Assembly (NCBI GenBank): GCA_007128045.1
Contig: SKYG01000123.1
Span: forward strand, 1 to 48,381
Length of the DNA: 48,381 nucleotides
Reading direction: 5' to 3'
From: Bacteroidales bacterium
GTDB taxonomy: Bacteria > Bacteroidota > Bacteroidia > Bacteroidales > UBA7960
Made by a program: the position numbers and the translations under genes. Position 1 is the stretch's first letter. Each line of letters begins with the position of its first letter. Positions 2,665 through 48,241 of the stretch are shown here, piece by piece. The notes below the pieces were generated by a model. That model had not been told where the DNA came from, searched no databases, and worked only from the letters and a program-made list of their open reading frames with translations.

Positions 2665-3748
2665 ATGATATATAACGACAACATAAAAGAACTTGACAAG
2701 AGGCTCGATGCCCTAAGGAGGTTTCTTTGACATTGATTCAAGAAACAAACAAATAGAAGACTTACAAGGCCTCACTGAGTCTGCCGACTTTTGGAATGAG
2801 TCCAGAGAGGCAGAAAAAATTCTTAAAGAAATATCAGAGCTCAAAAAATGGACTGGTGATTATGAAGAAGCATGCCAGCTATTAGAAGACCTCAAGGTGT
2901 TATTTGAGTTCTTTGAGGCTGGAGAGGGCAGTGAAGAAGAAGTAACCAAAACCTATGACAAGGTTATTAAAGCCATCGACAAGCTCGAGTTTCGGAAGAT
3001 GTTAAGTAAGGATGAGGACAGACTGAATGCCATTGTAAATATCAACTCCGGAGCTGGTGGCACCGAAAGTCAGGACTGGGCAGAAATGCTGATGCGTATG
3101 TACCTTCGATGGAGCGAGCGTAACAATTATAAATCAAATGTGCTTGACATTCAGGAAGGTGATGGTGCAGGTATAAAGAGCGCCTCTATCGAGATTGAAG
3201 GTGAAAATGCCTTCGGGTATCTTAAAGGAGAAAGTGGGGTGCACAGGCTCGTCAGGTTATCACCATTTGATGCCAACCATAAACGCCATACATCATTTGC
3301 TTCTGTATATACCTATCCAGTAGTAGACGATAGCATTGAAATAGAAATTAATCCGGCTGATTTAAGCTGGGACACCTTCAGGTCTAGCGGACCCGGCGGA
3401 CAGAACGTGAACAAAGTTGAAAGCGCTGTCAGGGTACGCCACGCCCCATCCGGCCTCATCGTTGAATGTCAGGAAACAAGATCCCAGGGTCAAAACAGGG
3501 AAAAAGCCCTCACCATGCTGAAATCTCAATTGTATGAGCTTGAGTTGAGAAAGAAGAGAGAAAAACTGCAGGCATTGGAAAGCTCCAAGAAAAAAATTGA
3601 ATGGGGATCACAAATCAGAAGCTATGTGTTTCACCCCTACAAAATGGTCAAAGACTTACGAACTGGTGTTGAAACATCAAATGTGCAACATGTGATGGAT
3701 GGAGAAATTGATGAGTTCATCAAAGCATTCCTCATTGAGTTTGCCTGA
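2665..3748 (+). CDS. prfB: Peptide chain release factor 2, requiring a programmed +1 frameshift at 2725-2731
   Basis: Frame 1 runs ATG 2665 ... AGG AGG TTT CTT TGA (stop at 2728-2730). Frame 2 continues from GAC 2729 into the tracked ORF 2897-3748, which carries SPF and GGQ (SGPGGQNVNK) motifs. The 21-codon N-terminal piece MIYNDNIKELDKRLDALRRFL is RF2-like. Confidence 0.9.
2716..2731 (+). promoter_or_regulatory. prfB +1 frameshift cassette (internal SD-like AGGAGG, 3-nt spacer, CTT TGA C slippery/stop site)
   Basis: The sequence AGGAGG-TTT-CTTTGAC has the same spacing and slippery site as the classical E. coli prfB recoding signal. Confidence 0.9.
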
Positions 3749-4047: not shown

Positions 4048-6696
4048 ATGGACAACAAGCCAGCATTGCAGGATGCGCTCAAAGACGCAGAAAAGAAAAA
4101 GGAACATGACAACCTTTACAACCAGGTTATTGATAAACGGTCGCGACCAGAGCCAGCCCTTTACACTAAGCCTGCAACCTATGAGTATCATGAGGCGGTA
4201 AAAAAGGCAACGGAATACTTTGAAGGCGATAGTCTCGCTGCTGGAGTGTGGGTTAACAAATATGCATTGAAAGATTCAGATGGCAACTTGTATGAGCTCA
4301 CACCCGACGATATGCACAGAAGGATTGCCAAAGAGATAGCGCGCATTGAGAAGCGTTATCCCAATCCCATGAATGAGAATACCGTATTTAACTTGCTTAA
4401 AGGGTTCAAATATATTGTACCCCAAGGTAGTCCGATGGCCGGTATTGGCAACCCTTTTCAGATCGGATCATTATCCAACTGCTTTGTTATTGGCAACAAA
4501 GGTGAAGCCGACTCATACGGTGGCATTATGAAGGTTGATGAAGAACAGGTACAGTTGATGAAAAGACGGGGTGGCGTAGGGCACGACCTGTCACACATCC
4601 GACCAAAAGGTAGCCCCGTAAAAAATAGCGCATTGACCTCCACTGGCCTGGTTCCTTTCATGGAGAGGTACTCCAATTCAACCCGTGAAGTAGCCCAGGA
4701 TGGCCGCCGGGGGGCATTAATGCTTACCGTGTCTATAAAACACCCCGATGCAGAAGGATTTATTAACGCCAAACTCGAACAGGGAAAAGTTACCGGAGCA
4801 AACGTATCGGTGAAAATCACTGACGACTTTATGCAAGCCGTTATTGACAACCATGAGTTTAACCAGCAATACCCTGTCAACTCTGACAATCCCAAGTACA
4901 AAAAACAAATCAATGCCAGGGAGTTATGGAAGAAAATCGTACATAATGCCTGGAAATCAGCTGAGCCAGGGATTCTTTTCTGGGATACCATTATTAAAGA
5001 ATCTGTCCCCGATTCTTACGCAGACCTGGGTTTTACAACCGTATCTACAAACCCTTGTGGTGAAATACCCCTTTGCCCTTACGACAGCTGTCGCCTTCTT
5101 GCCATTAACCTATACAGCTACGTAAAGGATCCTTTTACATCAAAGGCCACATTCGACATGCCTCTCTTTAAAGAACATGTTGGTTATGCACAGAAAATAA
5201 TGGACGATATCATCGACCTGGAACTGGAAAAGATTGATGCCATCCTGAAAAAAATATCATCAGACCCGGAAGATGTTGAAGTAAAAAGCGTGGAAATACA
5301 ATTGTGGGAAAAGATTCGCGAGAAATGTATTCAGGGGCGTAGAACTGGTATTGGGATCACCGCCGAAGGCGATATGCTTGCTGCCCTTGGCTACCGTTAT
5401 GGTACTGAGGAAGCCACAGTATTTTCTGTGAATATTCACAAGACACTGGCCATCGAAGCATACCGGTCATCAACCATTTTGGCAGGAGAAAGGGGCGCAT
5501 TTCCTGTTTATGACTCTCAAAGGGAGGCCAACAACCCGTTTATTCAGAGATTAAAATATGCCGACCCAGAACTATATGAACAGATGAGCAATCATGGTCG
5601 CCGCAACATTGCACTGCTAACCATAGCACCAACCGGAAGTGTTTCTTTGATGACACAAACTACCTCAGGCATTGAGCCTGTTTTCATGGTAGCCTATAAA
5701 AGACGCAAAAAAGTCAATCCCAATGATAAAAATGTGCGTGTCGACTTCGTTGATGAGGTGGGAGATCACTGGGAAGAATATAATGTATTCCACCATAAAT
5801 TTATCACATGGCTGAATGCCAATGGATATAATGTTGATGATGTAAAGAAGATGAAGGATGATGCCCTTGGTGAGATCATCCAACAGTCGCCATTTTATAA
5901 GGCCACTGCAAACGATGTTGATTGGGTAGCCAAAGTGAATATGCAGGGAGCCGTTCAAAAATGGGTTGATCACTCCATTAGTGTAACGGTCAATGTTCCT
6001 GAAAATGTAACCGAAGAGCTTGTTGCCAACATTTATGAGACAGGGTGGAAAAGCGGATGCAAAGGAATTACCGTATACCGCGACGGATCCCGATCCGGAG
6101 TGCTTGTCAAGGATAACACCAAAAAAGAAACAGCCGACGAGGAGTTCAAAGAAACCAGGGCACCAAAACGTCCTAAAGAACTTGAGGCCGAGGTGGTACG
6201 GTTTAATAATGACTCCGAAAAATGGATGGCGGTGGTTGGCACGCTTCATGACCGGCCTTATGAAGTCTTTACTGGCAAAGCCGATGGATTTTACCTCCCT
6301 GCCTTTGTTGAAAAAGGCTGGGTTATTAAAAACCGAACCGAAACAGGCGAAAAACGCTACGACTTTTCATTTCTTGATCGCGATGGATACAAGGTTACCA
6401 TCGAAGGTTTATCCCGTTCCTTTCACAAGGAATACTGGAATTATGCCAAACTGATATCCGGCGTACTTCGTCATGGAATGCCACTTCCCTCGGTGGTAGA
6501 CGTTGTTGAAGACCTGAATCTCGACAGTGACAGGCTGCATACCTGGAGAAATGGCGTCTTAAGAGCCCTTAAGAAGTTTATTCCCAATGGTACCAAAGCC
6601 CAGGGACGAATATGCAGCAATTGCAAAGAAGATGCTGTCATATACCAGGAGGGGTGTCTTACGTGTTCCAGTTGCGGAGAAAGCAAATGCGGGTAA
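4048..6696 (+). CDS. nrdJ: Class II (adenosylcobalamin-dependent) ribonucleoside-diphosphate/triphosphate reductase
   Basis: 882-aa ORF. The active-site finger-loop motif TNPCGEIPL, its length and overall architecture, and a C-terminal Cys cluster (CSNC...CLTCSSCGESKC) are typical of class II RNR tails. Confidence 0.85.
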   Translation: MDNKPALQDALKDAEKKKEHDNLYNQVIDKRSRPEPALYTKPATYEYHEAVKKATEYFEGDSLAAGVWVNKYALKDSDGNLYELTPDDMHRRIAKEIARIEKRYPNPMNENTVFNLLKGFKYIVPQGSPMAGIGNPFQIGSLSNCFVIGNKGEADSYGGIMKVDEEQVQLMKRRGGVGHDLSHIRPKGSPVKNSALTSTGLVPFMERYSNSTREVAQDGRRGALMLTVSIKHPDAEGFINAKLEQGKVTGANVSVKITDDFMQAVIDNHEFNQQYPVNSDNPKYKKQINARELWKKIVHNAWKSAEPGILFWDTIIKESVPDSYADLGFTTVSTNPCGEIPLCPYDSCRLLAINLYSYVKDPFTSKATFDMPLFKEHVGYAQKIMDDIIDLELEKIDAILKKISSDPEDVEVKSVEIQLWEKIREKCIQGRRTGIGITAEGDMLAALGYRYGTEEATVFSVNIHKTLAIEAYRSSTILAGERGAFPVYDSQREANNPFIQRLKYADPELYEQMSNHGRRNIALLTIAPTGSVSLMTQTTSGIEPVFMVAYKRRKKVNPNDKNVRVDFVDEVGDHWEEYNVFHHKFITWLNANGYNVDDVKKMKDDALGEIIQQSPFYKATANDVDWVAKVNMQGAVQKWVDHSISVTVNVPENVTEELVANIYETGWKSGCKGITVYRDGSRSGVLVKDNTKKETADEEFKETRAPKRPKELEAEVVRFNNDSEKWMAVVGTLHDRPYEVFTGKADGFYLPAFVEKGWVIKNRTETGEKRYDFSFLDRDGYKVTIEGLSRSFHKEYWNYAKLISGVLRHGMPLPSVVDVVEDLNLDSDRLHTWRNGVLRALKKFIPNGTKAQGRICSNCKEDAVIYQEGCLTCSSCGESKCG

Positions 6697-6698
6697 AT

Positions 6699-6746
6699 GG
6701 AGTTGAGGAGTTGAGGAGTTGAGGAGTTGAGGAGTTTATGAGTTTA
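6699..6746. repeat. Phased 8-nt tandem array (GGAGTTGA x4, then GGAGTTTA, TGAGTTTA)
   Basis: Read directly from the sequence. It fills the whole convergent spacer between the nrdJ stop (6696) and the AbgT stop (6736), and runs into the last 3 codons of the AbgT gene. Confidence 0.95.
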
Positions 6747-11507: not shown

Positions 11508-12080
11508 TTATTTTAGCATGACAGCAAGCCTGGCCACCCGTTCGCCCAGCCCCCTTGCCTTGTCCAAAAAAGCAGAATGAACTCCTTCTTCATTGTCAAA
11601 AGGGTACTCCGACACAATGGCTGATGCGCCAAACGGTGATTTCCAGTCGGGACCTCCCACAACAACCATTCCAAATATAAGCATCGACTGTAAGATGTTC
11701 ATTTGGGTGATCTCCTCACCAGCCGACATCCCACCTGCCGTCACAAACGCTGCGCCGATCTTATCTTTTAATGGCTGTCCCTGAAAAGGCCAATCAGAAA
11801 TAAATTGCTGTACCTCTGGTGAGACATTTGCATTATAGACCGGACTTCCAACAATAATAGCATCTGCAGCAAGCAAGTCAGGAGTCGTGGTCTTATCAAC
11901 CGTTTTCATGATCACAGTAACCCCTTCAACCACCCTTGCACCCTCTGCAACTGCTTCTGCCATAGCCGCGGTATTACCAGTCTTACTGTGATAGGAGATT
12001 AAAACCGTTACCTGACCCACCAAGGCATTATTTGCAAGTAAAGTAACAGCTACTGCGAACAACATTACGGCAACTTTCAT
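11508..12080 (-). CDS. Flavodoxin-like fold protein (WrbA/NAD(P)H-quinone reductase-like) with a hydrophobic N-terminal segment
   Basis: Start called at ATG 12080 (MKVAVMLFAVAVTLLANNALVGQ...). The 30 upstream in-frame codons belong to a repeat element. The segment ISYHSKTGNTAAMAEAVAEG is a flavodoxin-type FMN phosphate-binding loop. Confidence 0.7.
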   Translation of the reverse strand: MKVAVMLFAVAVTLLANNALVGQVTVLISYHSKTGNTAAMAEAVAEGARVVEGVTVIMKTVDKTTTPDLLAADAIIVGSPVYNANVSPEVQQFISDWPFQGQPLKDKIGAAFVTAGGMSAGEEITQMNILQSMLIFGMVVVGGPDWKSPFGASAIVSEYPFDNEEGVHSAFLDKARGLGERVARLAVMLK

Positions 12081-12187
12081 GTGTTTATTTTTTTCCCTTT
12101 GACCTTCGACCTTCGACCTTTGACCCCCATGAAAAACAATCATGCGTCTGTGTGTCAAAGTGTTTGTCATGGGTATTTCATGTGTTT
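12081..12187 (-). repeat. About 100-nt start-codon-abutting repeat element, well-conserved copy
   Basis: In gene orientation it reads AAACACATGAAATACCCATGACAAACACTTTGACACACAGACGCATGATTGTTTTTCATGGGGGTCAAAGGTCGAAGGTCGAAGGTCAAAGGGAAAAAAATAAACAC|ATG. It is near-identical to the copies at 31588, 33222 and 35937. Confidence 0.9.
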
Positions 12188-12291
12188 AAAATTGTCTGAA
12201 TGTCTGAATGTCGAAAAGTCAAAAAAAAGGGGAAATCTTTTAATCATGCGTCTGTGTGTCAATGCGTTTATCATAGACGTGTCATGTGTTT
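12188..12291 (-). repeat. Degenerate tandem second copy of the same element
   Basis: It keeps the core AAACACATGAC..ATGATAAACGCATTGACACACAGACGCATGATT. The heptamer block is replaced by CATTCAGA-type octamers (plus strand GTCTGAAT x2). Confidence 0.75.
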
Positions 12292-30815: not shown

Positions 30816-30829
30816 ATGTTTATAAATGT

Positions 30830-31012
30830 GTTGATTTGTTGATTTGTTGATCTGTTGATCTGTTGATGAGTTGAGGAGTTGAGGAGTCTGAAGGTCTGAA
30901 AGTTAAATAAATATCCTTCTTCCTCAGTGCTCCTTTCTCAGCGCTCCTTTCTCCTTTTTCAGTGCTCAGTGCTTATAATCATTTCAACTTTTCAACTTCT
31001 CAACTTCTCAAC
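30830..31012. repeat. Composite oligomer-repeat spacer between trpG and trpD
   Basis: Nine 8-nt units lie in a single register at 30830-30901: GTTGATTT x2, GTTGATCT x2, GTTGATGA, GTTGAGGA x2, GTCTGAAG, GTCTGAAA. These are followed by a 15-nt CTCAG(T/C)GCTCCTTTC x2 unit, TCAGTGC x2, and the inverted-orientation array TCAACTT(T/C) x3.6 at 30984-31012. Confidence 0.95.
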
Positions 31013-31587
31013 TAAATTTTAGCCAGCCAATTCATGATCATCCGTTTACCATCGGGGGTAAGTATTGATTCCGGATGAAACTGCACCCCGCAAATATCCC
31101 ATTCTTTATGACTGATCGCCATGATCCTGCCTTCATCATCATAGGCATCAACCTGTAAACAATCCGGGAAGCCGTTCTTGTCTGCAATCCATGAATGATA
31201 CCGTCCGGCCATAAATGTATTGTTCACCCCATCAAACAGGTAATGAACCGGTTCATTAAGATGGATGTTGGTTGCCACACCATGATACACCTTGCTGATA
31301 TTCTTCAGCTTCCCGCCAAATGACTCTGTGATGGCCTGCAGTCCCAGGCAAACGCCCAAAATACGCTTACTACTTTTATACCTGTCTATAACAGCAAGCA
31401 ATAAACCAGCCTCATCAGGAAGACCAGGGCCAGGCGACAAAATGATCCCGTCAAACGCCTCCACCTCATCAAGGGTAAGTTCATCATTACGCTTTACCTC
31501 AACCTGAAATCCTTCTGCTTCACGTACATAGTGAACCAGGTTATACGTGAATGAATCATAATTATCCAGTACAAGAATTTTTTTCAT
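31012..31587 (-). CDS. trpG: Anthranilate synthase component II (glutamine amidotransferase)
   Basis: Start called at ATG 31587 (MKKILVLDNYDSFTYNL). The catalytic triad region is GVCLGLQ...HPES. The 30 upstream in-frame codons belong to the repeat element. Confidence 0.9.
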   Translation of the reverse strand: MKKILVLDNYDSFTYNLVHYVREAEGFQVEVKRNDELTLDEVEAFDGIILSPGPGLPDEAGLLLAVIDRYKSSKRILGVCLGLQAITESFGGKLKNISKVYHGVATNIHLNEPVHYLFDGVNNTFMAGRYHSWIADKNGFPDCLQVDAYDDEGRIMAISHKEWDICGVQFHPESILTPDGKRMIMNWLAKI

Positions 31588-31684
31588 CTGTTTATTTTTT
31601 TTCCCTTCGACTTTCGACCTTTGACCCCCATGAAAAACAATCATGTGTCTGTGTGTCAAAGCGTTTATCATGGGCATTTCATGG
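31588..31684 (-). repeat. About 100-nt start-codon-abutting repeat element inside the trp operon (trpE-trpG spacer)
   Basis: In gene orientation it reads CCATGAAATGCCCATGATAAACGCTTTGACACACAGACACATGATTGTTTTTCATGGGGGTCAAAGGTCGAAAGTCGAAGGGAAAAAAAATAAACAG|ATG. Confidence 0.9.
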
Positions 31685-31708: not shown

Positions 31709-33121
31709 TCACAAACTAAATTGTTCTGCCAGCTTTATTGCCTTGCGCAAGGCAGATATTTTTCCGTTTACTTCCTTTAACTCACCCTCTTCACTGGAGT
31801 CGATAACCACACCGGCCCCGGCCTGATAAACAAGTTTCCCACGTTTGCTCATAAAGGAACGTATCATAATGGCATGGTTTAGGCTTCCCCCCAGCCCCAG
31901 TATTCCAATGGCGCCACCATAAAAGCCCCTGGCCGTGCCTTCATAACTATCAATCAGTTGGATGGCTTTGTGTTTTGGTGCGCCAGACAAGGTTCCGGCA
32001 GGAAAGGTGTCGGCAAACAACCGGTAGTTGTTGTTGGTGCGAAACATCTTACCTTTAACGGTCGACACCAGGTGAATAACATGTGAGTATGTATGCACCT
32101 CTCTGAATGTTTCAACAGTTACATCATCAGAATGCTTACTTAAGTCATTGCGCGCCAAGTCAACAAGCATACAATGCTCCGCATTTTCTTTCTCGTTCTT
32201 TAGCAGATCAGCTATCAATGCGGCATCCTCGTCCGGACTACCGGTTCTGATGACTGTTCCGGCTATGGGGTTGATAACAGCTATTCCATCACTGATCCGG
32301 AGTTGGGCTTCGGGTGATGAGCCAAACAGCTTGTAGCTCAAGTAGTCGAAGTAAAAAAGATACGGTGACGGATTGATAGAACGAAGAGCCCGGTAAACAT
32401 TAAATTCGTCGCCGGAAAAGTTCTGTTCGAAGCGGCGTGACAAAACAATTTGAAACACATCTCCTCTGGCGCAGTGCCTGATTCCGTTTCTGACCATTTC
32501 CATAAAACGTTCGTCGCTGACGGGGGTAAATTCTTCACCAGTGGCCATAAACGGGAAGCTGGTTGCATTTCTGTTTGCCAGAAGAGACATTACCTTGGAA
32601 ATCATAGACTTTTCACCTTCGGCAATTAACTCCGTGATGCTTAATGTATTGTTAAAGTGGTTGAAGGCAATAACCACCTGGTACAGGTCATACCTGAGTA
32701 AAGGGATGCGATCAGCATCTGCCTCAGGTGATGTGATATTCACATTGTCGAACAAGCTCACTGCATCGTAAGAGGTATAGCCAAACAATCCAGGCATGGT
32801 CTTTTCGCTGAAGTCACCTTCTATTTTGATGGTTCCAAGATACTGGTCAATCAAATTTGATACGGCATGATACCCTTCGAAAGAAAGATGATCATCTGCC
32901 TGGCCCCTTTTTCTGAGGTAAAAATTGTCTGCACTGGCCTCGAAGCCCATGATGGGAGTCAGACAAATATAGGAGTATGAATCATGCCGGGAGCTGTAGT
33001 CTGAACACTCCAGCAATAAACTCTGCGGAAAAGCATCCCGCAAACGAAGGTATATTCCCACAGGCGTGTATGTGTCTGCCTGCAAATGTATTGTCGTTGC
33101 CTTTAATCTGATATCGTTCAT
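31709..33121 (-). CDS. trpE: Anthranilate synthase component I
   Basis: 470-aa ORF. The chorismate-binding C-terminal domain carries GTLSGAPK and GGAIG motifs. Confidence 0.9.
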   Translation of the reverse strand: MNDIRLKATTIHLQADTYTPVGIYLRLRDAFPQSLLLECSDYSSRHDSYSYICLTPIMGFEASADNFYLRKRGQADDHLSFEGYHAVSNLIDQYLGTIKIEGDFSEKTMPGLFGYTSYDAVSLFDNVNITSPEADADRIPLLRYDLYQVVIAFNHFNNTLSITELIAEGEKSMISKVMSLLANRNATSFPFMATGEEFTPVSDERFMEMVRNGIRHCARGDVFQIVLSRRFEQNFSGDEFNVYRALRSINPSPYLFYFDYLSYKLFGSSPEAQLRISDGIAVINPIAGTVIRTGSPDEDAALIADLLKNEKENAEHCMLVDLARNDLSKHSDDVTVETFREVHTYSHVIHLVSTVKGKMFRTNNNYRLFADTFPAGTLSGAPKHKAIQLIDSYEGTARGFYGGAIGILGLGGSLNHAIMIRSFMSKRGKLVYQAGAGVVIDSSEEGELKEVNGKISALRKAIKLAEQFSL

Positions 33122-33221
33122 GTGTTTATATTTTTTCTTTTGACCTTCGACCTTCGACTTTTGACCCCATGAAATATAATCATCCCCATGTGTGTCAAAA
33201 CGTTTGTCATGGGAATTTCAT
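33122..33221 (-). repeat. Repeat element, trpE-proximal copy (divergent)
   Basis: In gene orientation it reads ATGAAATTCCCATGACAAACGTTTTGACACACATGGGGATGATTATATTTCATGGGGTCAAAAGTCGAAGGTCGAAGGTCAAAAGAAAAAATATAAACAC|ATG. Paired substitutions CTTTGAC>TTTTGAC and GTCAAAG>GTCAAAA are present. Confidence 0.9.
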
Positions 33222-33326
33222 CTGTTTATTTTTTTCCCTTTGACCTTCGACCTTCGACCTTTGACCCCCATGAAAAACAATCATGCGTCTGTGTGTCAAA
33301 GCGTTTGTCATGGGTATTTCATGTGT
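33222..33326 (-). repeat. Repeat element, trpE-distal copy (consensus-like), in tandem with the proximal copy
   Basis: It is essentially identical to the copies at 12081-12187 and 35937-36043. Confidence 0.9.
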
Positions 33327-33345: not shown

Positions 33346-33379
33346 CAAGAGCCCACTTAACATGTTAAGCGGGCTCTTG
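33346..33379 (-). terminator. Candidate trp attenuator hairpin (15-bp stem)
   Basis: On the minus strand it reads CAAGAGCCCGCTTAA-CATG-TTAAGTGGGCTCTTG, with one G-U pair. It lies 31 nt downstream of the Trp-leader stop. The trailing CUGUUAU is only moderately U-rich. Confidence 0.55.
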
Positions 33380-33410: not shown

Positions 33411-33485
33411 TTATAGACCTGAACGCTTAACAACATTGCTGTCGCTGCGCCACCACCAAAAGAATACAGTACTTAAACGGCTCAT
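33411..33485 (-). CDS. trpL: trp operon leader peptide (24 aa, three consecutive Trp codons)
   Basis: ATG 33485 to TAA 33413-33411 gives MSRLSTVFFWWWRSDSNVVKRSGL. TGG TGG TGG lies at 33458-33450. It is not in the ORF track because it is shorter than 60 aa. It lies upstream of trpE on the same strand and is followed by a hairpin with an alternative pairing partner inside the peptide coding region. Confidence 0.75.
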   Translation of the reverse strand: MSRLSTVFFWWWRSDSNVVKRSGL

Positions 33486-33506
33486 TTCTTTGTTCATTTA
33501 CGAATA

Positions 33507-33607: not shown

Positions 33608-33636
33608 CAGTCGATTTTACAACAATACCGATAGTT

Positions 33637-33699
33637 ATGAAATTATTCACTGCTTTTTTTAGCTTTTACTTTTACTTCTTTAGCAACAAAGGGGCGTGA
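33637..33699 (+). CDS. Phe/Tyr-rich leader peptide (20 aa)
   Basis: ATG 33637 to TGA 33697-33699 gives MKLFTAFFSFYFYFFSNKGA, with 7 Phe and 2 Tyr in residues 4-15. It is the C-terminal part of the spurious 87-aa tracked ORF 33436-33699. It is followed by a canonical intrinsic terminator immediately before pheA. Confidence 0.8.
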   Translation: MKLFTAFFSFYFYFFSNKGA

Positions 33700-33742
33700 A
33701 ATTGTGTGTGTTAATTGAAAAAATAAAATACATAAAGAACCA

Positions 33743-33769
33743 GGCCCCGCGATTGCGGGGTTTTTTTTT
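33743..33769 (+). terminator. Intrinsic terminator (attenuator) 9 nt upstream of the pheA start
   Basis: The stem is CCCCGC (33745-33750) with GCGGGG (33755-33760) and the loop is GATT. It is followed by T9 (33761-33769). The pheA ATG is at 33778. Confidence 0.8.
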
Positions 33770-34632: not shown

Positions 34633-35792
34633 TGATACAAACAGCCGACAGGATAAGCTCTGTGCAGGAATACTATTTTTCGCGAAAGCTCAAAGAGGTA
34701 GAACTCATGAGAAAAGCCGGAGCCAATGTTATAAACCTGGGCATTGGCAGCCCCGACCTGGCACCATCAGAGCAGACCATCAGCAAGCTTGTCGAACAAA
34801 GCAGACTAGACCATAACCATGGCTATCAATCATATGTTGGGATACCGGAACTCCGCACCGCCTTTGCCATGTGGTACCTCAGGTACTTTATGGTAAACCT
34901 GAATCCTGCCAATGAGATCCTGCCACTAATTGGCTCTAAGGAAGGCATCTTTCATATTTCCATGGCTTTCGTCAATCCCGGGGAAGAAGTGCTCATTCCC
35001 AACCCAGGGTATCCCACCTATGAGTCTGCGACAAGGCTGGTAGGCGGAAAGGTGCGGCATTATAACCTGAGCGCTGACTCAGGGTGGTATCCAAACCTCT
35101 ATGAGCTCGAAAAGCAGGATCTGAGCAAGGTAAAACTGATGTGGATCAACTATCCCCATATGCCTACAGGCACAAGGGCTTCGCAGCAAGTATTCAATGA
35201 CATAATCGGTTTTGGCATAAGAAACAATATCCTGATCTGTAACGACAACCCATATAGCTTTATCCTTAACGACAAACCCATCAGTCTGCTTACCGCCAAC
35301 CATGCCAAACAGGTTGGACTGGAGCTGAACTCTTTAAGCAAGTCGCACAATATGGCAGGATGGCGTGTCGGTATGGTGGCAGGACATCATGAGTTTATTA
35401 ACGCCATCCTGAAAGTAAAAAGCAATATGGATTCAGGGATGTTCAAGCCACTTCAGTTAGCCGCTGTTGAAGCACTGAAGAGTCCATCATCATGGTACGA
35501 ACAAATCAACAAAAAATACATGGAGAGAAGGCTGATTGCTTTTGATATCATGAAAACACTGAGATGTTCATACGACCCAGATCAAACGGGAATGTTCGTT
35601 TGGGCAAAGATACCTTCAGTATACCGCGACTCAACAGAGCTGACCGACAAGCTCCTGAATGAAGCGCACGTGTTTATTACCCCTGGGATTATCTTTGGTT
35701 CTAATGGAAAAGATTATATACGCATATCGCTCTGTAGCAACAAAGAATTGTTGCTTGAATCAAAAAACAGAATCATTGAATTTCTAAAATAA
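34632..35792 (+). CDS. Class I/II PLP-dependent aminotransferase (probable aromatic/prephenate aminotransferase)
   Basis: 386-aa ORF. NPGYPTY, NPYS and the PLP-lysine motif SLSKSHNMAGWRVG are present. Its start overlaps the pheA stop (TAATG). The context is between pheA and tyrA. Confidence 0.8.
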   Translation: MIQTADRISSVQEYYFSRKLKEVELMRKAGANVINLGIGSPDLAPSEQTISKLVEQSRLDHNHGYQSYVGIPELRTAFAMWYLRYFMVNLNPANEILPLIGSKEGIFHISMAFVNPGEEVLIPNPGYPTYESATRLVGGKVRHYNLSADSGWYPNLYELEKQDLSKVKLMWINYPHMPTGTRASQQVFNDIIGFGIRNNILICNDNPYSFILNDKPISLLTANHAKQVGLELNSLSKSHNMAGWRVGMVAGHHEFINAILKVKSNMDSGMFKPLQLAAVEALKSPSSWYEQINKKYMERRLIAFDIMKTLRCSYDPDQTGMFVWAKIPSVYRDSTELTDKLLNEAHVFITPGIIFGSNGKDYIRISLCSNKELLLESKNRIIEFLK

Positions 35793-35813
35793 TTGATCTG
35801 ATGAAAACGCCAG

Positions 35814-35936
35814 TCAACATGTTTGACACACCGGCGCATGCTGACAGGCACCGGGTGAGATCCCGAACATGCGTTCGGGACTTCGCTTCGCTCAGCTGTT
35901 CGACATTCAGACTTTCAGACATTTTGACTAAAAAAT
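35814..35936 (+). repeat. Degenerate upstream copy of the start-codon-abutting element
   Basis: It retains CATGTTTGACACACCGGCGCATG, then an 8-bp hairpin TCCCGAAC-ATGC-GTTCGGGA, then CATTCAGA/CTTTCAGA octamers and an A-rich end. Confidence 0.6.
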
Positions 35937-36043
35937 AAACACATGAAATACCCATGACAAACGCTTTGACACACAGACGCATGATTGTTTTTCATGGGGG
36001 TCAAAGGTCGAAGGTCGAAGGTCAAAGGGAAAAAAATAAACAC
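35937..36043 (+). repeat. About 100-nt start-codon-abutting repeat element (reference copy)
   Basis: AAACACATGAAATACCCATGACAAACGCTTTGACACACAGACGCATGATTGTTTTTCATGGGGGTCAAAGGTCGAAGGTCGAAGGTCAAAGGGAAAAAAATAAACAC|ATG (tyrA start at 36044). Confidence 0.9.
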
Positions 36044-36889
36044 ATGAATATTTGTATTGTAGGTATCGGTTTAATCGGGGGATCTATAGCCATTGATTTG
36101 CGCAATAGGGGTTTTGCAAAACAGATCATCGGTGTTGACAGCAATCCGCACCACGCCACCATCGCGAAGCACAGTAAGTTGGTTGACGATATAGACACCC
36201 TGGAGAATGGGATAGAAAGGTCAGACCTCATCATCCTGTCAACCCCCATTGACTCTATCAAAAAACTACTTCCCAGAGCATTGGATTCTGTAACAGGAAC
36301 CAAAAAAGTCATTACCGATATGGGATCTACCAAAGGTGGGATGAGTAGTCTGGTAGAAAATCATCCAAACAGAAAAAACTATGTTGCCGCACATCCTATG
36401 GCCGGGACAGAATATTCCGGACCACTTGCCGCCATCGGCAAACTGTTCGACTATAAATGCGCCATCATATGCGACAAGGAGAAAAGTAGTCCGCAAGCTT
36501 TAAAGGTGGTGAAAAAAATGTTTGATGTTCTGAACATGAAGGTAATTTACATGAATGCCAATGAGCACGATGTAAGTGCAGCCTATGTATCACACATCTC
36601 CCATATTTCGTCATTTGCCCTGTCGTTATGCGTACTGGAAAAGGAAAAGGATCAAAAACGTATACTAAGCCTGGCCAGTGGTGGGTTTGCCTCTACCGTG
36701 AGGCTGGCCAAAAGTTCGGCTGACATGTGGACGCCGGTATTTGAACAAAATTCGATGTATGTACTTGAAGTGTTAGACACCTATATCGAAAAATTGAAGA
36801 TGTTTAAAGCCTATATCGAAAGCAACAACCAGAAAGGCATAACCGATCTTATATTGGAAGCAAATAAAATTCAGAAAATACTTAACTAA
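36044..36889 (+). CDS. tyrA: Prephenate dehydrogenase
   Basis: Start called at ATG 36044, giving MNICIVGIGLIGGSIA (a Rossmann GxGxxG right at the N-terminus). AHPMAG motif. The 30 upstream in-frame codons are repeat-element sequence. Confidence 0.85.
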   Translation: MNICIVGIGLIGGSIAIDLRNRGFAKQIIGVDSNPHHATIAKHSKLVDDIDTLENGIERSDLIILSTPIDSIKKLLPRALDSVTGTKKVITDMGSTKGGMSSLVENHPNRKNYVAAHPMAGTEYSGPLAAIGKLFDYKCAIICDKEKSSPQALKVVKKMFDVLNMKVIYMNANEHDVSAAYVSHISHISSFALSLCVLEKEKDQKRILSLASGGFASTVRLAKSSADMWTPVFEQNSMYVLEVLDTYIEKLKMFKAYIESNNQKGITDLILEANKIQKILN

Positions 36890-39170: not shown

Positions 39171-39212
39171 TTAAACCATAAACCTTAAACCATAAACCTT
39201 AAACCATAAACC
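39171..39212. repeat. Tandem TTAAACCATAAACC x3 (alternating 7-mers) in the aroB-aroA spacer
   Basis: Read directly from the sequence. It ends 5 nt before the aroA ATG and is preceded by GTGTACGGT x2 (39138-39167). Confidence 0.95.
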
Positions 39213-39217
39213 CACTA

Positions 39218-40462
39218 ATGCAATATGTCGCACATCCATCTTCTGTAAATGGCCGGTTACTGGCTCCCGCATCGAAAAGTGCCGCCCAGCGGGCTATTGC
39301 CATTGCATCCCTGGCAGAAGGAACGTCAGTAATTGTACGTCCTGGCAGCTGCGATGATGTGCAGGCTGCCGTCAGTGTATGCAAACAGCTAGGGGTACAT
39401 ATTGAAGAACATGATCACCAGATGCATATTACCGGCGGCATCAGACCACCCGGTAATGAGCTGAATTGCGGTGAATCAGGCCTGGGAATACGGATGTTTT
39501 CAGGGGTTGCTGCCACACTTAACGAAGAAATAGTACTTACTGGAAAAGGCAGCCTCATGAACAGACCTATGTCGATGGTCGAACAGTCTTTACTCGCCAT
39601 GGGCGTATCATGCCAGACAACTGGGGGGCGGCTGCCCATCTTCATTAAAGGCCCATTTCCGGGAGGCGCTGCTACTATCGATGGATCTCAAAGTTCACAA
39701 GTACTCACAGGCATACTAATCGCCTCACCCATGGCAAACAGCGATGTGGTGTTATCCGTCAATGACCTGAAAAGCCGTGAGTATGTCGACATTACCACCC
39801 GAATCATGAAGCTTTTCGGTGTCAACGTCACCAATAACAATTACAAAGAATTTATTATCCCATCAAGACAACGATATAAAGCCACACAATACCGCGTTGA
39901 AGGCGACTGGAGTGGTGCTTCCTTTCTGTTGGTAGCAGGAGCCATAGCCGGGCAGATATCCATTGAAAACCTGGATTTGTCATCCGCCCAGCCAGATCGT
40001 AAAATTATGGAAGCACTTCAGGATGCAGGAGCCATATGTATAACAGATAATAACACGGTAGAAGTAAAAAAAGGAACAACAGCATTGCAAGCCTTTTCTT
40101 TCGATGCAACACATTGCCCCGACCTATTTCCACCCCTGGCGGCACTGGCAGCCAACTGCAAAGGCAAATCCAGCATCCTGGGTGTTAGCCGTCTGAAATC
40201 AAAGGAAAGCGACAGGGCAGCTACCATCATGGATACATTCGGAAAACTGGGATTAGATATTTCATTGGATAGAGATGCCATGATCATATCAGGTGGTCAG
40301 ATAAAAGGAGCAGACATTCACTCTCACGGCGACCACCGCATCGCCATGGCCGGAGCTATTGCCGCACTGAATGCTGACAGAAAGGTAACTATCGGACATG
40401 CCGATGCCGTAAATAAATCATATCCTGAGTTTTATAAAGACCTGGAAAGCATAACCTCATAA
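39218..40462 (+). CDS. aroA: 3-phosphoshikimate 1-carboxyvinyltransferase (EPSP synthase)
   Basis: 414-aa ORF. LAPASKSAAQRA (KS..R motif), ESDR and HGDHRIAMA motifs are present. Confidence 0.9.
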   Translation: MQYVAHPSSVNGRLLAPASKSAAQRAIAIASLAEGTSVIVRPGSCDDVQAAVSVCKQLGVHIEEHDHQMHITGGIRPPGNELNCGESGLGIRMFSGVAATLNEEIVLTGKGSLMNRPMSMVEQSLLAMGVSCQTTGGRLPIFIKGPFPGGAATIDGSQSSQVLTGILIASPMANSDVVLSVNDLKSREYVDITTRIMKLFGVNVTNNNYKEFIIPSRQRYKATQYRVEGDWSGASFLLVAGAIAGQISIENLDLSSAQPDRKIMEALQDAGAICITDNNTVEVKKGTTALQAFSFDATHCPDLFPPLAALAANCKGKSSILGVSRLKSKESDRAATIMDTFGKLGLDISLDRDAMIISGGQIKGADIHSHGDHRIAMAGAIAALNADRKVTIGHADAVNKSYPEFYKDLESITS

Positions 40463-40464
40463 CT

Positions 40465-40525
40465 CACAACCCATAATAGGGTAACCTGGTAACCTGGCAA
40501 CGCTGGGTTCCCCACAACCCGCAAC
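40465..40525. repeat. Oligomer repeats in the aroA-aroC spacer (CACAACCC ... GTAACCTG x2 ... CACAACCC)
   Basis: Read directly from the sequence: CACAACCC at 40465 and 40513, and GTAACCTGGTAACCTG at 40481-40496. Confidence 0.85.
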
Positions 40526-41519: not shown

Positions 41520-41562
41520 CCCGGCCTATCAGCAGGATTCTACCTTTCATGATATTAATCAA

Positions 41563-41595
41563 CCTTCAGACCTTCAGACCTTCAGACTTACAGAC
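41563..41595. repeat. Tandem CCTTCAGA x3 plus CTTACAGA in the aroC-downstream spacer
   Basis: Read directly from the sequence. It is the reverse complement of the GTCTGAAG units at 30886-30901. Confidence 0.95.
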
Positions 41596-43084: not shown

Positions 43085-43429
43085 ATGAAACAAAAATTCG
43101 ATATTATTCTGCTGGAAGAAGTGTGGAAGTTCTTTGATACCATGGATGAAAAAGTTAAGGACAAGATTATTTACAATATTGATAAATCAAAGTATATAAA
43201 TGACCCTGAACTTTTTAAGAAATTAGAAACGGATATTTGGGAATTCCGCACAAAATATTCTAATCTAAACTATCGAATTTTAGCTTTCTGGGATAAAGAA
43301 ATTAATATCGAGACCTTAGTTGTCGCTACTCACGGAATTATTAAGAAAACCGACAAAGTGCCGAAGAAAGAAATTGAAAAGGCAAGAGCGATAATGAAAC
43401 GCTATTTTGAACAGATAAATAAAAAATAA
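43085..43429 (+). CDS. Type II toxin, RelE/HigB-like (phage Gp49/DUF891-type)
   Basis: 114-aa ORF. The pattern ...IWEFRTKYSNLNYRILAFWDK...VVATHGIIKKTDKVPKKEIEKA is typical of Gp49-like killer proteins. It is followed 6 nt later by an HTH gene. Confidence 0.7.
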   Translation: MKQKFDIILLEEVWKFFDTMDEKVKDKIIYNIDKSKYINDPELFKKLETDIWEFRTKYSNLNYRILAFWDKEINIETLVVATHGIIKKTDKVPKKEIEKARAIMKRYFEQINKK

Positions 43430-43435
43430 GGACCC

Positions 43436-43765
43436 ATGGAAAAGTCAGAAAGAATAAGAACATACTCCCTTGACCAACTGAAAGACAAGCATCTTGGAAA
43501 AGTCGGAACAGAAAAAAGAGATAAATACGAGTATGAATTAAGACTTGACTTATTAGGTGAAATGATAAGGCAAACACGCAAGGAAAGACATTTAACACAA
43601 TCGGAACTGGGAGAAATGATTGGCGTTCAAAAATCACAAATTTCCAGAATTGAGAGAAACGCTAAAAATGTAACTATTGCCACTATCCTGAAAGTTTTTA
43701 ACGCCTTGAAAGCCAAAGTGAACTTTAACGTTGAATTACAAGACGGGGATTTCAAAATAGCCTGA
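43436..43765 (+). CDS. XRE-family HTH antitoxin (HigA-like)
   Basis: 109-aa ORF. LTQSELGEMIGVQKSQISRIERNAKNVTIATILKV is a Cro/C1-type HTH. Confidence 0.75.
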   Translation: MEKSERIRTYSLDQLKDKHLGKVGTEKRDKYEYELRLDLLGEMIRQTRKERHLTQSELGEMIGVQKSQISRIERNAKNVTIATILKVFNALKAKVNFNVELQDGDFKIA

Positions 43766-48045: not shown

Positions 48046-48211
48046 TGATATAAGCATGTACACGTTCTTTCATACCCGGGAAAACATTCACAAATGGATT
48101 GGCTTCGCCAAGCTCGCGATCTGCCAGGCTCCCCAGATGAAAAATCAGGGCGACCTTCCGAAAGATCGAAACTTGTTGTTCCGATTCATCGGAAAGCTAT
48201 CTGACCACGGA

Positions 48212-48241
48212 CCTTCGACCTTTGACTTTTGACTTTTGACC
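48212..48241. repeat. CCTTCGA/CTTTTGA heptamer array (partial element-like block) upstream of the ABC ATPase
   Basis: CCTTCGACCTTTGACTTTTGACTTTTGACC. This is the same heptamer family as in the 100-nt elements, but in the opposite orientation relative to the downstream gene. Confidence 0.85.

Follow-up and report, generated by a model that had tools for sequence, protein, structure and literature searches.

Why should four unrelated genes in one bacterial genome be preceded, right up to the ATG, by nearly the same hundred nucleotides of DNA? The genes lie in a 48,381-nt stretch from a Bacteroidales bacterium (positions 1 to 48,381 of contig SKYG01000123.1, assembly GCA_007128045.1), which we call the window. 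They encode a flavodoxin-like flavin mononucleotide (FMN) reductase with a signal peptide (fld), the two components of anthranilate synthase (component I, trpE, and component II, trpG), and prephenate dehydrogenase (tyrA). The original prediction, made from the sequence of the window alone, offered several explanations for the repeat: a mobile or duplicating translation-initiation cassette, an element with a preference for start sites that resembles a MITE (miniature inverted-repeat transposable element) or a repetitive extragenic palindromic (REP) sequence, or a shared cis-regulatory RNA. By comparing the window with related DNA, we found that the units are recent insertions with a defined junction structure and a constant orientation, that their anatomy is modular, that they have spread to several lineages, and that their core is conserved. 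We conclude that the repeat is, with high probability, an inserted, mobile module associated with start codons.

The window contains seven units at the starts of these four genes, and every copy that had been predicted is present. (We give the length of a unit from ATG to ATG.) In front of tyrA (36044-36889, + strand), a proximal unit of 101 nt (35943-36043, +) runs from a relic ATGAAAT to an AAACAC that adjoins the tyrA ATG at 36044, and upstream of it is a distal unit of 142 nt from a divergent subfamily (35801-35942, +). The start of fld (11508-12080, -) also has two units: a proximal unit of 101 nt (12081-12181, -), which adjoins the start codon at 12080, and a distal unit of 104 nt (12182-12285, -) with the same core and an octamer array of the TTCAGAC/TTCGAC type. 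There is one unit of 95 nt, with three heptamers, in front of trpG (31588-31682, -; the gene is at 31012-31587, -). Both of the units of trpE (31709-33121, -) lie between the attenuator of the Trp leader and the ATG. The proximal one (33122-33221, -; 100 nt) belongs to an older subfamily and has a GGATGATTATAT signature, and the distal one (33222-33322, -; 101 nt) is young. The distal unit of trpE and the proximal units of fld and tyrA, which we call type 1, are 98-99% identical to each other. The trpG unit is 87-89% identical to these type-1 copies and the trpE proximal unit is 86-87% identical to them; the distal units of fld and tyrA are just 51-63% identical to the other units.

The repeats are also apparent from general searches. 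A repeat search of the window identified arms of 113-119 nt at different sites that are 97-99% complementary, Tandem Repeats Finder (TRF) detected the 101-nt tandem upstream of trpE, and a 57-nt core occurs four times with at most two mismatches, where shuffled sequences are expected to have none. The second, degenerate units that had been suggested upstream of fld and tyrA differ in how clearly they belong to the family: the match is clear at fld (nhmmer E = 3e-9) and weak at tyrA (E = 0.013-0.017). These two distal units share a 30-nt array that is 90% identical. The proposed common beginning, AAACACATGAA, is found in some units only, as the trpG unit begins with GATACC followed by ATGAA and the distal trpE unit with TATACAC followed by ATGAA. 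An assembly artefact, which had been named as a possible explanation, is excluded because an independent assembly from the European Nucleotide Archive (L015) has the identical arrangement at fld. L015 is essentially the same strain as the window (its Fld is 98% identical).

The N-termini of orthologues confirm the gene starts at the ends of the units, including the ATGAAT of tyrA, and Pfam confirms the identities of the four genes. Pfam also identifies the genes upstream of the units as glmS (before fld), trpE (before trpG), and an aminotransferase (before tyrA). The units contain other ATG codons that are in frame with three of the genes and 90 nt 5' of the true starts, at 35954 (tyrA), 12170 (fld), and 31677 (trpG), so programs that call open reading frames (ORFs) add 30 spurious codons. 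For example, the tyrA ORF that begins at 35954 is too long by 30 codons, and a public homologue of Fld (P0121) is annotated with 220 instead of 190 amino acids. The claim that the repeat always ends at a start codon holds at all four sites in the window. It does not extend to every copy in the relatives: one copy, in L002, has a stop codon on one side and a terminator on the other, and another three, which are older, are about 60-110 nt 5' of the start.

If the units are insertions, then some relatives should lack them. We reached syntenic contigs from relatives (L004 and others) via their homologues of TyrA. The spacer between the aminotransferase gene and tyrA is 251 nt in the window and about 12 nt or less in L006, L008, L010, L011, and L014; in L004, the two genes overlap (ATGA). 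L010 allows a base-by-base comparison, as its TyrA is 96% identical to that of the window and the site is empty there. The left junction in the window reads TAA TTGATCTG ATGAA, with an 8-nt spacer between the stop codon of the aminotransferase gene (35790-35792) and the ATGAA (35801-35805). L010 reads TAA CTGCCCTC ATGAATATTTGC, which is the same 8-nt spacer followed directly by ATGAATATTTG. The right junction in the window is AAACAC ATGAATATTTGT. Because the left-hand ATGAA is at the same distance from the upstream stop codon as the start codon in L010, it is the ancestral start codon of tyrA.

The same structure is seen at trpG. Between trpE and trpG, L004 and L011 have a spacer of about 25 nt, and the window has one of 121 nt. 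The L011 spacer ends with GATACC ATGAAG; in the window, the left junction has 26 nt that end with GATACC ATGAA, and the right junction is AAACAG ATGAAAAAAAT. The relic ATG of this unit (31682..31680) is 26 nt past the trpE stop codon, which is the position of the ancestral trpG start. (The relic ATG of the distal unit of fld, at 12285..12283, is 19 nt past the glmS stop codon.) At both tyrA and trpG, the right-hand ATGAA reads on into the conserved N-terminus of the protein. A direct repeat of ATGAA flanks every insert that we could date, which would fit a target-site duplication and, equally well, an ATGAA that is carried by the element.

There are also insertions that the window lacks. In L004, two units separate pheA from the aminotransferase gene, a junction at which the genes of the window overlap, and a further unit follows aroC, where the window is empty. 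Upstream of trpE, L004 has a unit with the same GGATGATTATAT signature as the trpE proximal unit of the window; the interval from the Trp attenuator to trpE is empty in L011 and L020. Among the 14 known units (seven in the window and seven in relatives), 13 have the orientation of the downstream gene, which is every copy that has a downstream gene. This comparison of orthologous loci, with tyrA and trpG sites that are empty in relatives and ATGAA on both sides of the inserts, bears out the suggestion of a mobile or duplicating initiation cassette, or a MITE- or REP-like element with a preference for starts: the units are present or absent at orthologous loci and their junctions at ATGAA are precise to the base. 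In L004, we also noticed two extra copies of ATGAATAAC, without the body of the element, directly 5' of the trpE start ATGAATAAA (5222-5260, -). These duplications may have been left behind by earlier insertions and deletions at the start codon.

Within a unit, the order of the parts along the gene's strand is a relic ATGAAAT, a palindrome around the core, a G run, heptamers, an A-rich tail, and then the ATGAA of the gene. In the tyrA copy, the conserved core TTTGACACACAGACGCATGATTGTTTTTC (35965-35993, +) covers the columns that are invariant among the copies. More narrowly, the core of this copy is TTTGACACACAGACGCATGATT, in which TTGACACACA and ATGATT are invariant in all copies, and we describe it with the pattern TTTGACACACA-N5-NATGATT. 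An imperfect internal palindrome, CCCATGACAAAC / GTTTTTCATGGG (35951-35998, +), brackets the core; its arms of 12 nt are 92% complementary and are 24 nt apart. The heptamer array of tyrA is GGTCAAA GGTCGAA GGTCGAA GGTCAAA (35999-36028, +), and its tail, GGAAAAAAATAAACAC (36028-36043, +), occupies positions -16 to -1 relative to the start codon. Across the family, there are 2 to 6 GGTCRAA heptamers, and the tail is GGAAAAAAATAAACA(C/G), which ends with AAACA(C/G). The heptamer in the register GTCAAAG is the exact reverse complement of CTTTGAC in the core. The family is modular, because sister units share the core but carry different arrays of 7-8 nt: those of the fld distal and tyrA distal units are of the CATTCAGAC type, and those of unit B in L004 are of the CTCAAC type. 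All of the palindromes are internal: an imperfect one is close to the 5' end, and the 3' end has none. The predicted DNA fold of a unit is marginal (z = -1.8).

To describe the distribution of the family, we searched about 0.25 Mb of related DNA with a profile. The family was found only in the lineages of the window and L015, of L004, and of L002 and L003, and about 150 kb from other relatives contained no copy. Scans of genomes and metagenomes with a strict 21-nt pattern for the core identified two full-length copies, L002 and L003, in one metagenome from the Joint Genome Institute (JGI); the L003 copy ends with AAAAAAAAACAG directly before the ATG of a gene with a twin-arginine translocation (TAT) signal. 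The scans also identified a match to the core alone (25-26 nt) in a metagenome-assembled genome (MAG) from the Flavobacteriales (L001), in a divergent intergenic region and about 70-90 nt 5' of a co-oriented gene. The L001 match is only probably real, because about 0.5 chance matches to the 21-mer are expected in the 596 Gb of the collection that contains it and only its 4-5-nt extension argues otherwise. The pattern is too strict for variants of the L004 type (CAGGAGC, CATGCGC), so the low number of matches in genomes and metagenomes does not gauge the spread of the family.

The three copies that are 98-99% identical are consistent with a recent burst, to judge from their sequences. Between the window and L004, fourfold-degenerate sites are 38% identical in trpE and 45% identical in tyrA, which is essentially saturated; the functional Trp leader and attenuator region is 72% identical; and the trpE unit is 78% identical, with 52 of 62 positions matching from the core onward. 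Because the trpE unit is this similar despite the saturation of synonymous sites, the core must be constrained. The constraint could come from any of three sources: a need for the core in cis for mobility, with independent arrivals from conserved masters; a function for the host; or concerted evolution.

We propose that the units are a family of non-autonomous insertion modules of about 95-140 nt. A module would integrate in one fixed orientation at ATGAA, the pentanucleotide that opens many genes of this lineage. The old ATGAA would stay behind as a relic at the 5' edge of the module, and the gene would keep or regain an ATGAA just 3' of the tail AAACA(C/G). In this way, the whole upstream region of the gene would be replaced by the module, genes that had overlapped or nearly overlapped would end up 95-250 nt apart, and the downstream gene would receive a standard A-rich initiation region that lacks a Shine-Dalgarno sequence. 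An insertion within a gene would be lethal to that gene; insertions at start codons would be tolerated because a start codon and a workable leader are rebuilt. Furthermore, an inserted unit would be an ideal new target and would therefore account for the tandem pairs, which are found at 4 of about 10 sites. The module would be mobilised in trans by an enzyme that is encoded elsewhere in the genome, and the core TTTGACACACA-N5-NATGATT together with the flanking palindrome would be the cis-acting recognition site of that enzyme. Effects on the host would include the uncoupling of genes and possibly a weak internal promoter. (That the uncoupled genes were translationally coupled before the insertion is probable, because they overlapped or nearly did so.) By class, then, the unit is a small, non-autonomous, intergenic mobile repeat, and it is set apart by inserting at start codons and regenerating them. 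The full explanation, with the trans-acting enzyme and the role of the core, seems to us somewhat better than an even proposition.

Is the preference for ATGAA sufficient to explain why the units are at start codons? Of the 40 genes in the window, 15 start with ATGAA; the pentanucleotide is also found at 165 positions within genes and at 29 intergenic positions away from annotated starts, and the host genome is 89% coding. If ATGAA were the target and purifying selection removed the intragenic insertions, then about one-third of the surviving copies should be at starts. Six copies are young or lie directly against a gene, and each of them is at a start. Since this exceeds the expectation from the ATGAA counts, extra specificity or selection is likely: the element may prefer a wider A-rich context, which it recreates itself, or the rebuilt leader may be selected for.

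This shortfall in the simplest form of the explanation is one of several points against it. There is no transposase or recombinase gene in the 48-kb window, and no autonomous partner is known. The units have no terminal inverted repeats, since their two ends (ATGAAAT... and ...AAACAC) do not complement each other. One copy, that of L002, lies somewhere other than a start codon. The conserved and possibly orthologous copy at trpE would fit a function for the host better than a signal for mobility, unless the copies in the window and L004 are independent insertions. Only about 0.25 Mb of related DNA bears on the copy number and the positional distribution. And three models fit the junctions alike: a true target duplication of 5 bp, insertion of an element-borne ATGAA beside the start, and microhomology-mediated copying. 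Insertion beside ATGAA in the style of IS200/IS605 also fits the data.

The last of the three models would do without a transposase. A leader that is bounded by ATGAA at both ends could be copied by microhomology-mediated template switching or by ectopic gene conversion, with the number of heptamers shifting by replication slippage. The donor and the empty target share only ATGAA and an AT-rich upstream context, the four sites in the window are all within 24 kb, and neither a transposase gene nor terminal repeats were found in the window, all of which speaks for such copying. So do the ATGAATAAC duplications before trpE in L004, which lack the body of the element, and unrelated cassettes of this clade that are built alike, with a variable 5' part, an array of 7-8 nt, and a tail such as TTTTAAACAC that is followed by ATGAA. 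We nevertheless think that transposase-free spread is unlikely, as 5 nt of microhomology is very short for repeated, precise events of constant orientation at many sites in several lineages. Also, the family is common to genomes whose synonymous sites are saturated, which suggests a maintained and constrained element rather than sporadic copying. That constraint could instead reflect selection by the host, with the unit as a portable promoter or regulatory cassette and the core as a sigma-A-type promoter or a regulator's site. The heptamer array and A-tail would then form a 46-nt 5' untranslated region (UTR), and the operon-internal genes trpG, tyrA, and fld would gain their own transcription start, free of the upstream attenuators. 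A T(A/G)nnTTTC at -12 to -5 (TGTTTTTC in the tyrA copy) puts TTTG at -33 to -30, given the position of the sigma-A box in Flavobacterium psychrophilum (PMC9723704) and the TTTG at -33 in the Bacteroides consensus (PMC7366714). Transcription is then predicted to start near 35998, in the G run, with a UTR of about 46 nt, which is typical for Bacteroides (median 32 nt, mean 52 nt). The columns that are best conserved in the diverged copies include TTTG, which is present in 10 of the 11 copies with a core, and the TA of the -7 box; the conservation of the core between the window and L004 would be explained, and the identical 25-26-nt core in L001 is in a divergent intergenic region, where a promoter must lie. 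There is also precedent, in that the units fall under the operational definition of putative mobile promoters (PMC3575422) and the BrickBuilt MITE of Porphyromonas gingivalis has promoter activity (PMC4596501). However, the box always ends with C and never with the conserved G (the copies are TGTTTTTC, TATTTTTC, TATATTTC, and TATATCTC), and the A is missing from the young subfamily (TGTTTTTC). Every copy has a spacer of 17 nt, whereas four canonical intergenic promoters in the window have spacers of 18, 19, 20, and 21 nt and the full TAnnTTTG. In the putative spacer, ACACACA...ATGAT, conservation reaches the level of the boxes, unlike what a promoter would show; attenuation would be defeated if transcription began constitutively between the Trp attenuator and trpE; and the single L001 match is near the chance expectation. 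A promoter or regulatory cassette is a possibility that we take seriously and do not favor. (Sigma-54, extracytoplasmic function [ECF], and sigma-70 readings of the core were dropped by eye because of wrong spacing or missing key bases.)

The remaining alternative, a shared cis-regulatory RNA such as a riboswitch, a protein-binding leader, or an attenuator that coordinates aromatic amino acid genes, draws on the fact that three of the four sites in the window are at such genes. In addition, the relic mini-ORF reads MK(Y/C/F)P-stop, and CTTTGAC in the core can pair with the GTCAAAG heptamers. But the units are missing at the same genes in close relatives, and the other genes that host them are unrelated: the flavodoxin-like gene, the TAT-signal gene of L003, and in L004 the aminotransferase gene and an ORF of unknown function. 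The units have no match in Rfam at the gathering threshold or at E ≤ 1; the z-scores for RNA folding are -1.0 and -1.2 for the two strands, which is no better than shuffles; and the arms of the palindrome are either conserved or lost, with no compensatory changes. Furthermore, attenuators with Trp (FFWWW) and Phe leader peptides already control these operons. The suggestion of an RNA in the original prediction is largely refuted by the folding scores, the lack of covariation, and the true attenuators elsewhere in the loci, and we consider it very improbable. The more specific idea that the units are aromatic amino acid attenuators was rejected, since the true Trp and Phe leaders lie elsewhere and the units are absent from orthologous loci.

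The Trp leader, upstream of the trpE units, encodes the peptide MNKEMSRLSTVFFWWWRSDSNVVKRSGL followed by a stop (MNKEMSRLSTVFFWWWRSD...; 33411-33497, -), with three consecutive Trp codons, and is followed by the hairpin CAAGAGCCCGCTTAACATGTTAAGTGGGCTCTTG (33346-33379, -). The leader and the terminator hairpin are conserved in L004, L011, L014, and L020. This attenuator is of the classical type and was not detected by Rfam at the gathering score. Just before the ATG of pheA, a Phe-rich leader peptide (MKLFTAFFSFYFYFFSNKGA, then a stop) is followed by GGCCCCGCGATTGCGGGG and a run of nine T (33636-33769, +). This region has a sub-threshold match to Phe_leader in Rfam (34.4 bits, E = 0.0045; the gathering score is 55).

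How would a unit affect the translation of the gene behind it? It had been proposed that the element supplies the A-rich and presumably unstructured region from -1 to -18. The unit does supply this region, and indeed everything from -1 to about -100. The tail places A at -6 and at -8 to -14, and position -3 is C; in Flavobacterium, A at -3, -6, -12, and -13 and an A-rich stretch from -14 to -11 favor initiation (Baez et al., PMC6847099). There is no gain in accessibility, however. The mean predicted pairing probability from -20 to +20 is 0.18, 0.36, 0.37, and 0.58 for the four genes, as compared to a mean of 0.46 for the window and 0.33-0.61 for the empty alleles. Because the predicted accessibility of the starts is no better than elsewhere, the leader appears to be adequate rather than enhancing, and it is best described as compatible with initiation. 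We rejected the idea that the unit is a translation enhancer that acts through accessibility, as there is no systematic gain relative to either the genes of the window or the empty alleles.

The relic ATG opens a mini-ORF, ATG AAA T(A/G/T)C CCA TGA, whose stop codon overlaps a second ATG. The ORF from the second ATG runs in frame into the gene (tyrA, fld, trpG, and L003), overlaps the start by ATGA (trpE), or stops at a TAA 4 nt before the start (L004 and L002). At nine of nine sites, ATG-initiated ORFs that are linked by ATGA overlaps or a 4-nt gap span the insert from the region of the relic ATG to the real start. We do not take these coupled chains as evidence: dinucleotide shuffles match the longest open frame in 19-73% of cases, and the antisense strand is equally open. 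The frame-specific P values are 0.07-0.70, and these are neither independent nor free of a post hoc choice of frame. Striking as it looks, the pattern does not reach significance against shuffles of the same composition when frame choice and common ancestry are taken into account.

The original prediction did not place the repeat in a described family, and we found no match to it in Rfam, in collections of plasmids or phages, or in the literature. The plasmid and phage collections had matches to the heptamer array only, in three proteobacterial plasmids: the GGTCAAAGGTCGAAGGTCGAAGGTCAAAGG array alone matches at 93% over 30 nt, in multiple places, in NZ_CP035511.1, CP000618.1, and NZ_CP053613.1 (Haematobacter, Burkholderia), so similar heptamer arrays occur in Proteobacteria. 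Like MITEs, the units are short (<300 bp), non-coding, and present in multiple near-identical copies with empty sites; they are not classical MITEs, because they lack terminal inverted repeats. The units resemble in particular one MITE of the phylum: BrickBuilt, from P. gingivalis (PMC4596501), is also small, non-coding, multi-copy, strictly intergenic, and polymorphic for presence or absence in a member of the Bacteroidota, and it consists of a leader, an internal tandem array, and a tail, with measured promoter activity. BrickBuilt has small inverted-repeat ends and 23-nt repeats and lies 49-591 nt from coding sequences, whereas the units have no terminal inverted repeats, have 7-nt repeats, are always co-oriented with the gene, and abut or regenerate its start codon. 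Putative mobile promoters (Matus-Garcia, Nijveen and van Passel 2012; PMC3575422) are near-identical sequences upstream of non-homologous genes and across taxa, with at least 80% identity over at least 50 nt, and the units at fld, trpG, trpE, and tyrA are 86-99% identical over 95-101 nt. That class is purely descriptive and covers -150 to -50, while the homology of the units extends to -1, their insertion point at the start codon is given by empty sites, and their putative promoter is imperfect.

The arrays within the units have parallels of their own. In cyanobacteria, the short tandemly repeated repetitive (STRR) sequences are arrays of direct heptamer repeats next to start codons. The TAACTGA arrays of Beggiatoaceae, cyanobacteria, and a few Bacteroidetes (PMC4679880) have 2-6 tandem forward units of 7 nt near a start that lacks a Shine-Dalgarno sequence, vary by indels in steps of 7 nt, and precede genes without a functional theme. 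The GGTCRAA arrays are similarly close to the start, as they end 16-17 nt before the ATG. They differ in the sequence of the repeat (GGTCAAA/GGTCGAA, or octamers with a different sequence in sister units), and the array is here one module of a larger insert with a conserved core and a defined junction. As for the mode of insertion, elements of the IS200/IS605 type move by a mechanism that involves hairpins at both ends and a Y1 HUH transposase. The palindrome-associated transposable elements (PATEs) that derive from IS200/IS605 and the REP sequences with their REP-associated tyrosine transposases (RAYTs) are, like the units, small and intergenic, with no terminal inverted repeats and a palindrome near one end (PMC3119063, PMC2817692). 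Both of their ends bear hairpins, they do not duplicate the target, and they need the Y1 HUH transposase (mechanism in PMC3597680). As in these elements, insertion of the units is orientation-specific and beside a fixed sequence of 4-5 nt (ATGAA at the left boundary); in contrast to them, the units do not have subterminal hairpins at both ends but one imperfect palindrome, and their 3' end consists of heptamers and an A run. No Y1 HUH transposase (TnpA or RAYT) is encoded within the 48-kb window. ATGAA is not known as a target of the IS200/IS605 family. Finally, the Correia, ERIC, and RUP-type repeats (cited in PMC3575422 and PMC2229807) are also non-autonomous, can bring promoters or alter mRNA leaders, and sometimes overlap the starts of ORFs; they differ in that they have terminal inverted repeats, use TA or another short sequence as the target, and are not placed systematically at start codons.

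We came across no published mobile element whose insertions, where they survive, lie exactly on start codons and rebuild them. With 89% of the genome coding, such insertion would be a route by which selfish DNA could persist. It would also rewire the junctions of operons: genes that once overlapped are now 95-250 nt apart and have their own leaders, within trp and aro operons that are otherwise under leader-peptide attenuation. And it would offer a concrete account of where the short tandem arrays directly at start codons come from; such arrays have been reported, so far with no explanation (PMC4679880). More speculatively, the units may represent a previously unrecognised kind of site-specific mobile DNA that homes to ATGAA starts in Bacteroidota that lack Shine-Dalgarno sequences and that carries a promoter-plus-leader cassette, with its insertion and decay giving rise to the clade's heptamer and octamer arrays and relic starts and perhaps to such arrays in other phyla; we offer this as a tentative idea that may well be wrong. 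On the practical side, the in-frame ATG of the unit has already led to predictions in public data that are over-extended by 30 codons (P0121). If the core is a promoter or a recombination site, then the unit would be a compact and portable module for expression or integration in Bacteroidota.

Other tandem arrays of 7-8 nt are present in intergenic regions of the window, at 6699-6744, 30826-31013, 39172-39212, 40450-40506, 41562-41595, and 48210-48241. Further intergenic arrays are in the trpE-trpG spacer of L014, in L004 (3042-3207), and in L018 (4388-4541). The units of all these arrays (GGAGTTGA, CAAATCAA, TAAACCA, CATAACC, ACCTTCAG, GACCTTT, GTAGGAA, and AATCTGCG) occur in both orientations. 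Arrays of this kind look like a general habit of the clade, of which the family described here is one instance. A second small repeat family, GTTCCGATTCAYCGGAAAGCTATYYGACC, which contains a hairpin (TTCCG/CGGAA), is at 48170-48205 in the window, at 9850-9885 in L016, and at 8620-8655 in L017. Both in the window and in a relative, the genes downstream of it are unrelated, and arrays of the GACC/GGTC type follow it.

Some other features of these loci are worth recording. The assembly that contains L004 and L019 (GCA_036681025.1) has two different alleles of tyrA (P0002 and P0005) on separate contigs, with numbers in the millions in the contig names, and behaves like a metagenome assembly and not like one genome. 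A gene for a Gp49/HigB-like toxin is followed by a gene for a helix-turn-helix (HTH), HigA-like antitoxin at 43085-43765 (+) in the window; at that position, L004 has a nucleotidyltransferase/HepT-like pair and no HigB/HigA-like pair. Finally, prfB, which encodes release factor 2 (RF2; 2665-3748, +), has the classical site for a programmed +1 frameshift, AGGAGG TTT CTT TGA C, at 2716-2731. Part of this site resembles a Shine-Dalgarno sequence, which the genes of this genome otherwise lack.

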